Program-made: the position numbers
Shown here: positions 24,001 to 27,000 of the stretch, piece by piece
How the letters are laid out: the number at the start of each line of letters is the position of its first letter
Position numbering within the stretch: the stretch's first letter is position 1
NCBI RefSeq assembly: GCF_054482525.1
Contig: NZ_JBTHVG010000003.1
DNA: 64,000 bases
Direction: 5' to 3' (one strand)
Source of the DNA: a plasmid

Positions 24001-27000
24001 GGCCGTCCATTCTGGGAAGTTGAGCCAGGCCCGCATGATTATGAATATGGCCCGCAATATCCGTATTTCCCAGACCAGCGCTAGGAAGAGATCAAGATGA
24101 GAGAGCCAAGACCACGCCATACCTTGCAGGTCATTCGTGTACCTTCTCTGGAGGTTCAGGACCTGGGGCTGACCAGCTTTGATAGCTGGCTTGACGAGCA
24201 CGGGTATGACAAAACGAATGCCAGAAATAACCGTACCATCTGGGCGAGAGAAGGCGGATGGCATCTGAAACGTTGCAGAAATCTTGAAACTGGCACGGAC
24301 GATTTCTGGTTTATCGCTTTCGATGGTAAAGGCGGGAAGATTTACCCGCTGAAAACCCAAAGAGACTACCGGGCTGCATATCGTAAGCTGGAAGCAGAAG
24401 GTTATGCGCCTGCGGTCATCGAGCAAATGACCACAGGCGCAGCATATAACCTGGCCTATCCACGTTCCACCCTAAAACAAGCTGAGACGGCCACCAGCGA
24501 GCCAATTCGGAAACCTGACGTAGATATCCAGGGTGAGCACTGCGAGCGCGTAGTGACGCAACGTAGTGGCGTGGCACAGGGTAAATTCAAAGCTCTGCTC
24601 ATCGAGAATTTCGCAGGCCGTTGTGCGGTAACCGGTTGGGTTAATGGAGGTGTCCTGGATGCGGCACACATTGAACATGGAACCCGGTACAATCCGTCTA
24701 ATGGCATCCTGATGACTCCAACAATGCATGCGCTGTTTGATGCCGATCTTATGGGCATAGATCCGGCCACCCTGACCGTTCATTTTAAGCCAGGCATTGA
24801 GGTGGGCGAGCTGTTTGAAGGCCGTAAAATCACACCGCTGGTGTACGATCTGGACTTAGAGCGGCTGGCCGTACGCTGGGCAGAATACCAGGGCCTTGCT
24901 CAGGACCAATGAAGGGTGACAGCCAGGTTGTGCCTAAACCTGGCAGTAAAACCTGCATGCCACAAACCTTTAAATTCTGACTCAAGAGCCTGGCACAAGA
25001 TAAAAGCGAAATGAAAAGGTTAAAACCGGTGCACCAGACCTCTTAGGTTTAATACCTGAGCCAGTATACTGGCAGTCTCAGGTAAGTGGGTATCATACAC
25101 TTCAGAAATATCCACACCGAGATAACCGCAACAGTTAAAGAGCTAAAAAGGACGGTTTTAATTTTATGAATAAAACAGCTTTAATTATGATTCTGGGAAT
25201 CCTCGGATGTGGTAAAGCATTTGCAGCCACTGAATTACAGCTCCAGCAAAAACGCGTTATGCATTTCTGTGCCAATGCCAGCCTTCCGTTGTTGATTGCC
25301 GGTACAACTTATGCGAATACGTCTGACAATGGACGACCAGAAAAAGAAAGAGTGGCAATCCTGAAAAATTCAGTTGCAAGCTCGACAGCTTATAAAATGG
25401 CATCTCCCGGAGTTCAGATGGCCATGATGAGCGTGGTGGAAGATATTGCCGATCCGAAAGAATTAGCTCTACATCAAAAAGAAGTTAGACGTCTTGGGGC
25501 TAGTTATCTTTCCGACAGCGGTGTTTCATGGGCTTCAAAAACTGTTTCACCATTTACAGCCTGGTGTAACTTTAACCGTTTAGAAAGTTAAGGCTGGCAA
25601 GGCGGTTCCTGTTCAGGAAAGTTACTTTCCGTGCGGGGACCGTAAGATACAGATAAAGCTTAAGGCCTTTGAATTTTTGGAAAGCATTTGAAAATTTCAT
25701 TGCGCTTGTCTGATATGAAACAGCCCTGCATTTCTGCAAAGGCTGAAAGAGTGTGTACGGACTTTGGAAGGAGTGATGATATACGCCTGAGCCATCCCAT
25801 CACCGCAGACAGGGTAATTAACCCTGACTAAAGCTTTCACCTATTCCGTCGCTCGCAAGCGGCTTTCGCACACTAACGAAGGTATGGCCTTTCGTCGGTG
25901 TTAAATTTTTCGGCTATTTGCAATCTGAGGTTGGATTGTAGATTTTAGTTAGAAATGGATCAAAGTCCGTTTTGTGCAAAACTTGGTTGACAACCCTCTT
26001 TTGGATGATGTGCCGTTTCGTGCAAAAGTTGGTTGGAGGCCAAGATGGCAGAGTTCGTAGGTTCGGCTGCTTCGCAAGCTGATTTCATTTGGAAGAACGC
26101 GGAAGACCTGTGGGGGGGGGATTTCAAGCATACCGACTTCGGCAAGATCATTTTGCCGTTTACCCTGCTGCGTCGATTGGAGTGCGCACTGGAGTCTACA
26201 CGGGAAGCATCGCTCGATAGCCAACCAGCCACGATTGAGTTCTTAGAAGCAGAGTTCAGTGTTGATTTCGATGCGCTGCTATCTTGACCGCCAATCAGAC
26301 CCGCATGGTTCAGGTTTGTGTATGAGAGTCCCCAAATGGCTGTAGTTCTAACCAAAGCCTTGATTGAAGCCGGCCGCACCGGAAATAGTGGGTACAGAAA
26401 AAAGCAGTTGCTTGCGCTGGGCGTAAGTAACCCGCCGAAAAGCGGCTGGATCGAACGACTGATCGGCACTGAGGTATCTGACGAGCAGTACGAACGCTTT
26501 CTGGGGCACAGCACGAGCAAGCTGCATATTCCGGTCGAAAATGAACACCTATTCCGGTTTAAAATGAACGCTGATTCCGGCTTGCGTGTACACCGATTCC
26601 GGACACCTCAGTGCACGTACTCTGATGTCAGATGAACCGTCCTGTTCCAACGTCTTGGATCCACAACTGCCGCGCTGCGCTTGGCTGCTGGCTTGTTCAG
26701 TGAGTCGAAAAGATGCCTCCCCTCAAAGCTCAGCTTCTGCTCGAAGAATCCCTGTCCGCATACTTTCCGGAATCACTGTTCAACTTCACCGGAATACGCA
26801 CAAGCAGGCTGAACAGATCCTACGCGGAGAGCAGCCAGCCAAGGGGCTTCAGTATGCAAAGCGAGCGAAGAAGCTCGCTTCTGAAAGAAAAGCCACAATT
26901 GATCTGGATAACGAGCACCTGTCTGAAATCGAAAAGTATCGGTAGCCCTAGACTTTTAGCCGCTGAAGATCTCTTAGATACCATTGGTGAAACTTGCTGA

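Follow-up and report, generated by a model that had tools for sequence, protein, structure and literature searches.

A probable transposase-less derivative of ISKpn25 accounts for an hsdM remnant beside a helicase gene on IncHI2 plasmids

Why should the opening codons of hsdM, the methyltransferase gene of a type I restriction-modification (R-M) system, lie just upstream of a helicase gene on a conjugative plasmid that shows no other part of that system? The question is raised by a 64,000-nt stretch (here, the window, whose numbering is used throughout) of plasmid contig NZ_JBTHVG010000003.1 (assembly GCF_054482525.1), which forms part of an IncHI2-type conjugative plasmid. A first-pass annotation had read the fragment, hsdM', as the scar of a decayed R-M system that had been replaced or followed by the adjacent helicase/nuclease module. 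Our analysis leads to a different answer: positions 25912 to 30298 are very probably a derivative of an ISKpn25-family (ISL3) transporter insertion sequence (IS) that lost its transposase by internal deletion, with hsdM' as the dead remnant of its left arm. The locus is widely distributed, as positions 25600 to 27100 were 100% identical to dozens of IncHI2 records from E. coli, Salmonella, and Shigella (more than 25 of them independent), and about 800 large resistance plasmids (mostly IncHI2, some carrying mcr) have this stretch annotated as “hypothetical protein / ATP-dependent helicase.”

The evidence begins with the ends of the block. The 4,387-bp element terminates in inverted repeats (IRs; IRL on the left and IRR on the right) and is enclosed by an 8-bp target site duplication (TSD) (Table 1). 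In a sister IncHI2 plasmid, E. coli p573-1, the site is empty, with a single AATTTTTC and flanks 100% identical to those of the window; because this empty site is clean, the element is taken to have inserted as a unit where nothing had been resident before. Three further sites of the element, each with its own perfect 8-bp TSD, were identified: in R478-like IncHI2 plasmids (locus L003; TSD TAAACATA), in a metagenomic plasmid lineage (L006 to L008; CTTAAATT), and in Salmonella plasmids of the AP023312 type (L017; CTTTTTTT). Plasmid comparison placed the block at differing backbone positions across IncHI2 lineages, a variation that one IR-bounded, TSD-flanked unit explains. An empty counterpart of the R478-type insertion was also considered inside the window and was set aside as not clean, the window lineage being without the surrounding ~4.9-kb segment.

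These sites bear directly on the earlier proposal of a type I R-M locus that belonged to the plasmid itself, decayed where it stood, and was replaced or adjoined by a helicase/nuclease module. The proposal draws on the position of the hsdM 5' fragment next to the helicase module and on the existence of one relative, the IncC plasmid pC-CRECL423, in which intact hsdMSR genes do stand beside the same kind of helicase. Against it, fragment and helicase fall within one IR-bounded unit with an 8-bp TSD, that unit recurs at three other sites, and the relative with intact hsdMSR also proves to be a transposon flanked by TSDs. The suggested comparison with related plasmids at this position turned up the clean empty site of p573-1, which contradicts a prior resident locus. 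Decay in place is therefore judged very improbable. What survives of the first-pass reading is that the fragment is the dead 5' end of an hsdM with no catalytic part nearby; replacement of an R-M system by the helicase module does not, as both appear to be cargo of the same IR-bounded transposon family with 8-bp TSDs.

Table 1. Features of the element, its flanks, and its nested insertion (window coordinates)
Feature	Position	Strand	Details
Left TSD copy	25904..25911		AATTTTTC; identical 8-mer at 30299-30306
IRL	25912..25933	+	GGCTATTTGCAATCTGAGGTTG; 22 nt, 91% complementary to 30277-30298; same terminus in L013, L014, L023
Internal repeat copy 1	25956..25989	+	Includes 23-mer 25967-25989; TGCAA-N5-GGTTG core shared with terminal IRs
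Internal repeat copy 2	26002..26035	+	Includes 23-mer 26013-26035; 3' end abuts GGAGG, with one base in common
hsdM' pseudogene ORF	26045..26287	+	80 codons + TGA (26285-26287); hsdM-homologous part only 26045-26209
G9 homopolymer	26112..26120	+	+3 expansion of ancestral G6; LWGDF to LWGGDF
Filler right of deletion junction	26210..26291		82 bp; L010 homology starts at 26292
Small gene, 5' part	26336..26522	+	Codons 1-62 of 108; then MITE
MITE left TSD	26518..26522		CAAGC
MITE	26523..26800		278 bp; ends TGCATATTCCGG... and ...CCGGAATACGCA; ~23-bp subterminal ATTCCGG repeat arrays
MITE right TSD	26801..26805		CAAGC
Small gene, 3' part	26806..26945	+	TAG at 26943-26945; last 55 bp also beside helicase in 11.4-kb element
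UvrD/GajB-like SF1 helicase (679 aa)	26948..28987	-	Pfam UvrD-helicase E=2.5e-44; PADLOC GajB-type models
Helicase partner gene	28984..29988	-	334-aa ORF (284-328 aa in annotations); Pfam CoiA_N E=2.4e-5, below cut-off
Right end of element	30150..30298	-	IRR = 30277-30298 (...CAACCTTAGTTTGCAAATAGCC); ~91 bp homologous to canonical ISKpn25-type right end
Right TSD copy	30299..30306		AATTTTTC
ORF, open reading frame; MITE, miniature inverted-repeat transposable element.

The family to which these ends belong is well described. Published ISKpn25 has 8-bp TSDs, a length matching 8,154 bp, and transposition that was shown experimentally (PMC8768599); hsdM counts among the passenger genes that it carries (PMC5142620), with which its ORF table agrees (PMC8796155). 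In K. pneumoniae pIncFIBpQil, canonical ISKpn25 measured exactly 8,154 bp, was flanked by the TSD GAAATTAG, and had the order IRL-hsdM-hsdS-hsdR-ISL3 transposase-IRR. With this transporter IS (ISL3; 8,154 bp; ISfinder reference NC_009650) the window element shares the terminal IRs (GGCTATTTGCA...), the 8-bp TSD, ~91 bp of homologous right end, and the layout of the left end, namely, IRL, two internal repeats spaced by 46 bp, a ribosome-binding site (RBS), and an hsdM start at position 134. Across the left arm (297 bp, from IRL to about nt 164 of hsdM), identity was 75% to canonical ISKpn25 and 88% to the element of pC-CRECL423. In contrast, the window element is without the transposase, hsdS, and hsdR, its hsdM is cut to 54 codons, and its length is 4.1 to 4.4 kb instead of 8.15 kb; it has a small gene and a helicase/partner pair that canonical ISKpn25 does not.

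That R-M genes and helicase can travel together is seen in pC-CRECL423 of Enterobacter hormaechei (L013 plus L015; record positions 91007 to 102423). Its 11,417-bp element, with the TSD GTTTAATG on both sides, has the order IRL-hsdM-hsdS-hsdR-tnp-(last 55 bp of the small gene)-helicase-partner-IRR, and its tnp product scored 321 bits against the NCBIfam ISL3 transposase model (cut-off, 180). A single transposon can, as this element demonstrates, carry the helicase pair together with the genes of a type I R-M system. The 11.4-kb form with hsdMSR-tnp plus the helicase pair was represented by a single record in a collection of 72,556 plasmids, and the small gene-helicase junction of the transposase-less form by about 810. 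An IS21 element lies directly outside the right end of the pC-CRECL423 element.

As to membership, the window element has ISKpn25-type terminal IRs and an 8-bp TSD; the ISL3 DDE transposase was absent from the window by tblastn with the L013 tnp product, as was the hsdMSR operon save for hsdM codons 1 to 54. Because no transposase match was present in the window, the element is classed as a non-autonomous derivative and not as an IS in the strict sense. It has the traits of a mobile insertion cassette (MIC), that is, IRs and a TSD, no transposase, passenger genes, and several independent insertions. Known MICs such as mic-qnrS2 (PMC2600179) are likewise IR-bounded and TSD-flanked, carry passenger genes without a transposase, and occur at multiple sites; the window element differs from them in its ISL3 transporter-IS origin (8-bp TSD) and in a cargo that is defense-like instead of resistance, and its movement in trans is putative.

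The left end contains a further family trait. Two 23-bp direct repeats had been noted upstream of hsdM'; they are real and identical at 21 of 23 positions, the first at 25967 to 25989 as described and the second beginning at 26013 (to 26035) and not at 26012. Repeat searching extended them to 34 nt with a spacing of 46. Exact matches to TGCAA-N5-GGTTG occurred only four times in the 64 kb: in IRL (25919), in the two repeats (25975 and 26021), and in IRR (30277, minus strand). Both repeats and their 46-bp spacing are kept in the 11.4-kb element and in canonical ISKpn25 (L013, L014, and L023) despite 25% overall divergence and, because they are conserved in such distant relatives, are not attributable to chance. 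One copy is gone in L006 through a 46-bp deletion (recombination between copies). The direct repeats therefore belong to the architecture of the IS left end, where they may act as additional transposase-binding sites or as control elements of hsdM. Mirror-image internal repeats at the right end were not supported: only GGTTGGA half-sites were seen, and shuffled sequences did as well (91/500 and 25/500).

What remains of hsdM is short and recognizable. As first annotated, an ATG at 26045 follows a GGAGG RBS (26035 to 26039) and opens an ORF of 80 codons, and the HsdM similarity was recovered with Pfam HsdM_N (E=1.6e-9; 39 bits against a cut-off of 24.5; profile positions 3 to 48 of 135), with the PADLOC type I methyltransferase model MTase_I (E=3.5e-16; positions 6 to 57 of 661), and with tblastn. 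The product is thus predicted to be a genuine HsdM homologue with a partial HsdM_N domain. The homologous stretch comprises ancestral codons 1 to 54 plus one additional Gly and, as far as position 26208, shares 87.9% nucleotide identity with intact hsdM from L013. When intact HsdM, HsdS, HsdR, and the ISL3 transposase of L013 were searched by tblastn against the 64-kb window, only HsdM residues 1 to 70 matched; BLASTP similarity out to residue 70 (3/15 identities with a gap) was not meaningful past residue 54. In the intact relative, the S-adenosylmethionine (SAM) motif I lies at about aa 212 and NPPF at about aa 297, both beyond the end of hsdM' (aa 54). The earlier observation that no methyltransferase catalytic motifs follow was upheld by family searches and tblastn, which revealed none downstream of hsdM' in any frame of the window. 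Alignment to functional HsdM (PDB 7vru; EcoR124I, 7bst; EcoKI, 2y7c) places the 54 residues in the N-terminal helix region of HsdM_N, whereas the rest of that domain, SAM motif I, catalytic motif IV (NPPF/Y), and an adjacent hsdS or hsdR to supply a partner are all missing from the 64 kb. Nor was a sigma-70 promoter for hsdM' found on the plus strand, where a conserved TTGACA at 25986 is without a convincing -10. We interpret hsdM' as an ordinary, apparently nonfunctional pseudogene, the 5' remnant of a type I hsdM, that should not count as an R-M system in annotation.

Could an intact hsdM instead continue past a frameshift introduced by sequencing error, at the G run or elsewhere? Homopolymers are error prone, and the length of this run does vary among records. 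No downstream frame encodes more of HsdM, however, DNA homology to intact hsdM stops at 26208, and more than 25 independent records are identical over 25600 to 27100; the tblastn and blastn results refute this explanation, which has next to no chance of being correct. A separate interruption of hsdM' was seen in the IncHI2 plasmid pMCR_915_E1 (E. coli; NZ_MT929285; L002 positions 3055 to 7948), in which hsdM' breaks off right after the G run (window ~26121/26122) at an IS26-bounded segment with genes for a cytosine methyltransferase and a type II restriction enzyme; ISApl1 is close by.

The G9 tract inside hsdM' is present where it was first reported. Intact hsdM in L013 and L014 has G6 (LWGDF), and the length differs among the truncated copies, even at one and the same insertion site: G9 in the window and L001 (one additional Gly, frame kept), G8 in L003, L011, and L012 (a frameshift in 3/3 R478-like IncHI2 loci examined), G6 in L017 to L021 (ancestral frame), and G4 in L006 (frame kept, with a synonymous GGG-to-GGC change interrupting the run). 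From this distribution, G9 appears to be a lineage-specific, in-frame slippage product in an unconstrained remnant. Phase-variable homopolymer tracts are known in mod and hsd genes of Haemophilus, Neisseria, and Helicobacter, and enteric hosts are mismatch-repair proficient. The G run resembles those tracts in lying within an hsd frame and in varying among close relatives (G6, G8, and G9); unlike them, it sits in an hsdM' already cut short, so that switching cannot govern R-M activity. As a contingency locus, it shows the length polymorphism but no on/off switch of a functional gene, since only a 54-codon remnant without a catalytic part remains.

The same run figures in a different account, in which the 79- to 80-aa HsdM_N-only ORF is a functional decoy or regulator of ISKpn25-type type I enzymes and the G run is a phase switch, possibly also affecting the small gene downstream. 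Several features are consistent with it: leader and RBS are kept; the ORF is open in both the G6 and G9 variants; run length has changed repeatedly at the same insertion sites; positions 26045 to 26945 form one frame with a single stop (TGA) once the nested MITE is removed; and the ratio of nonsynonymous to synonymous divergence (dN/dS) over the 55 codons of hsdM' was 0.03 relative to L006, in which hsdM is likewise cut short. That low ratio is also expected if divergence preceded the loss of intact hsdM. It is most simply explained by divergence while both lineages still had an intact gene, an order of events supported by the differing breakpoints of the window and L006 lineages. Selection for the ORF is argued against by the G8 frameshift in all three R478-like loci, a lineage that forms many plasmid records; ORF tails past codon 54 differ completely (80 versus 136 aa); the IS26 truncation in pMCR_915 is tolerated; and there is no sigma-70-like promoter on the plus strand. 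A conserved family of ~78-aa HsdM_N mini-proteins was sought and rejected, as the apparent homologues of 77 to 80 aa (P0013, P0018, and P0051; 68 to 79% identical) were frameshifted copies of the same sequence and the others were N termini of ordinary hsdM. A functional mini-protein is accordingly given only a slim chance, and the pseudogene interpretation is retained below.

How the derivative might have formed can be outlined from its junctions. Two blocks of DNA homology to intact elements were found, one spanning 25912 to 26208 and the other starting at 26891, where 55 bp of the small gene are still to come; HsdM protein identity ends at TREA (ancestral codon 54). Alignment to intact hsd loci, suggested earlier as a route to the deletion endpoints, thus yielded the left junction (26209|26210) and no definable right endpoint. 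The parent would have had the order IRL-hsdM-hsdS-hsdR-tnp-IRR, with a rarer version carrying helicase and partner downstream of tnp. An internal deletion would then have taken hsdM from codon 55, hsdS, hsdR, and the transposase. The left arm now consists of IRL, a leader with the RBS and the two IR-like repeats, and 54 codons of hsdM; across the 82-bp filler it is joined to the 108-codon small gene, which is followed by the convergent helicase/partner pair and the IRR-bearing right end. With both ends kept, the element could be moved by an ISKpn25-type transposase acting in trans. Later, in the window lineage, an Aeromonas-type 278-bp MITE split the small gene with a 5-bp duplication, and the G run of the dead hsdM' would have drifted by slippage from the ancestral G6.

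Several observations weigh against so simple a sequence of events. The L006 lineage has its breakpoint at hsdM nt 251 (residue 84) instead of nt 164 as in the window, its filler also differs, and the ORF tails beyond codon 54 are wholly unlike (80 versus 136 aa). Synonymous divergence (dS) between the window and L006 is likewise uneven: the left arm and the small gene stand at 0.55 to 0.62, compared with 0.16 for the helicase and 0.03 for its partner. Because breakpoint, filler, and left-arm dS differ, either the transposase was lost on more than one occasion or recombination reshuffled the arms; the history is mosaic, and one deletion does not fit it. No match to the 82-bp filler, or to the filler of L006, was found in intact ISKpn25-type elements or the plasmid collection, and the right endpoint is not definable, as no reference was found with both tnp and an intact small gene. 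The sole autonomous helicase-carrying form is one record and could be a recombinant, not an ancestor. Mobilization in trans, finally, is deduced from the four TSD-flanked sites and is to be read as presumptive.

Between hsdM' and the helicase, 660 bp (26288 to 26947) had been described as holding only short, frame-shifted ORFs. Short ORFs without family matches are indeed all that the stretch contains as it stands, but they are really one gene split by a 278-bp MITE: removing the MITE in silico restored a single 108-codon ORF, and uninterrupted 108-aa homologues with 96 to 99% identity exist in public data (P0121 to P0126). R478-like plasmids (L003) lack 283 bp of the window, equal to the MITE plus one CAAGC, and have a single CAAGC at the empty site. 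The insertion shows the traits of a MITE, being short and noncoding with terminal IRs, a TSD, an empty site, and multiple copies; its ends are TG...CA. A second copy, with the TSD CCTTT, lies in an IncC plasmid (L005 positions 4001 to 4300), matches were found in 372 plasmid records, and relatives were present in 74 Aeromonas plasmid records, in which copies were 88 to 94% identical.

The mic-qnrS2 cassette has 22-bp IRs and a 5-bp duplication (PMC2600179), and the Aeromonas MITE/mic-qnrS2 family shares with the 278-bp MITE its 5-bp TSD and imperfect terminal IRs of ~22 to 25 bp. The likeness is seen at the right end, where comparison with the qnrS2-adjacent end in the IncQ2 plasmid pKPSH231 (L016) gave one mismatch in the terminal 23 nt and ~89% identity across the right-hand 198 bp; the 278-bp MITE is without the qnrS2 cargo. 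Identity with the 75-bp-core MITE of pAC3 was considered and rejected.

The small gene itself had a dN/dS of 0.10 relative to L006 and thus appears, by this measure, to have evolved under purifying selection. The first ~55 residues of its product belong to a small domain that is widely distributed but has no name (699 representative proteins at E<=1e-3) and is found alone, repeated, or C-terminal in larger proteins, in one case behind an HNH nuclease; the protein had no family match in Pfam, PHROGs, NCBIfam, or PADLOC. The gene is nonetheless broken in nearly all of 814 plasmid records, either by the MITE (window lineage) or by a frameshift in an A run (R478-like). The run, at window positions 26386 to 26392 (AGAAAAAAG), lacks one base in plasmids of the R478 and AP023312 types and in some of the window type (L003 and L017 to L021); the small gene was therefore frameshifted independently of the MITE. 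Together, insertion site, G-run length, MITE presence, and the A-run frameshift offer lineage markers for typing.

The remaining cargo is the helicase and its partner, which accompanied the helicase in all loci examined. Nucleotide identity of the helicase region was 88 to 95% in L006 and L013/L015. At 91%, the pair was also found outside this element family, in an integrase-associated island of Azotobacter chroococcum pAcX50e (L004 positions 12003 to 15142), where it adjoins RES toxin and DUF4942 genes and homology ends exactly at the helicase stop codon. A nuclease role for the partner is putative, the CoiA_N match being subthreshold, and no match was found among solved structures. PADLOC v2 did not recognize the pair as a known defense system; a role in defense is plausible by analogy.

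The element illustrates how a transporter IS can exchange its cargo, with R-M genes and transposase lost and helicase and partner retained. ISKpn25 is already known; a cargo-swapped, non-autonomous derivative was not found described, and no prior description of an IncHI2 helicase-carrying ISKpn25 derivative was located in the searchable literature (ISfinder and TnCentral lay outside the search), which makes the finding modestly novel. A broader and rather doubtful proposal is that ISKpn25-family elements are modular shuttles of defense genes, with R-M to the left of tnp and helicase/partner to the right, and that the 4.1- to 4.4-kb derivative, moved in trans by ISKpn25-type transposases, would spread an unclassified two-gene helicase/nuclease-like system through IncHI2 and related plasmids. 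Less likely still, the leader of hsdM and the 54-codon peptide behind it, whose G run is prone to slippage, would continue to serve a regulatory or decoy function. Mobilization in trans, if it occurs, might be driven by an IS whose activity in Klebsiella gives rise to colistin resistance through insertion into mgrB.

The surroundings of the element (21980 to 25591 and 30601 to 31950) look like an accessory or defense-type patch. To the left are a hipBA-type toxin gene, hipA (21980 to 23305), an HNH_2 protein gene (24097 to 24912), and an unannotated ORF of 141 aa with a secreted-looking product (25166 to 25591); to the right are a truncated HNH gene (30601 to 30939) and an H-NS-family gene (31546 to 31950). 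The truncation corresponds to 764 bp of p573-1 that are missing from the window ~270 bp right of the element (window ~30556 to 30567 versus L022 3075 to 3838); this deletion is bounded by a 12-bp overlap and shortens the HNH endonuclease gene from 285 aa to a 112-aa ORF. Farther along, a ~200-bp end of L022 matched the window at ~54121 to 54321, 56768 to 56976, 58633 to 58836, and 63451 to 63656, on both strands and with 99 to 100% identity, which suggests multiple IS copies, probably of the IS26 type, between 54 and 64 kb of the window.

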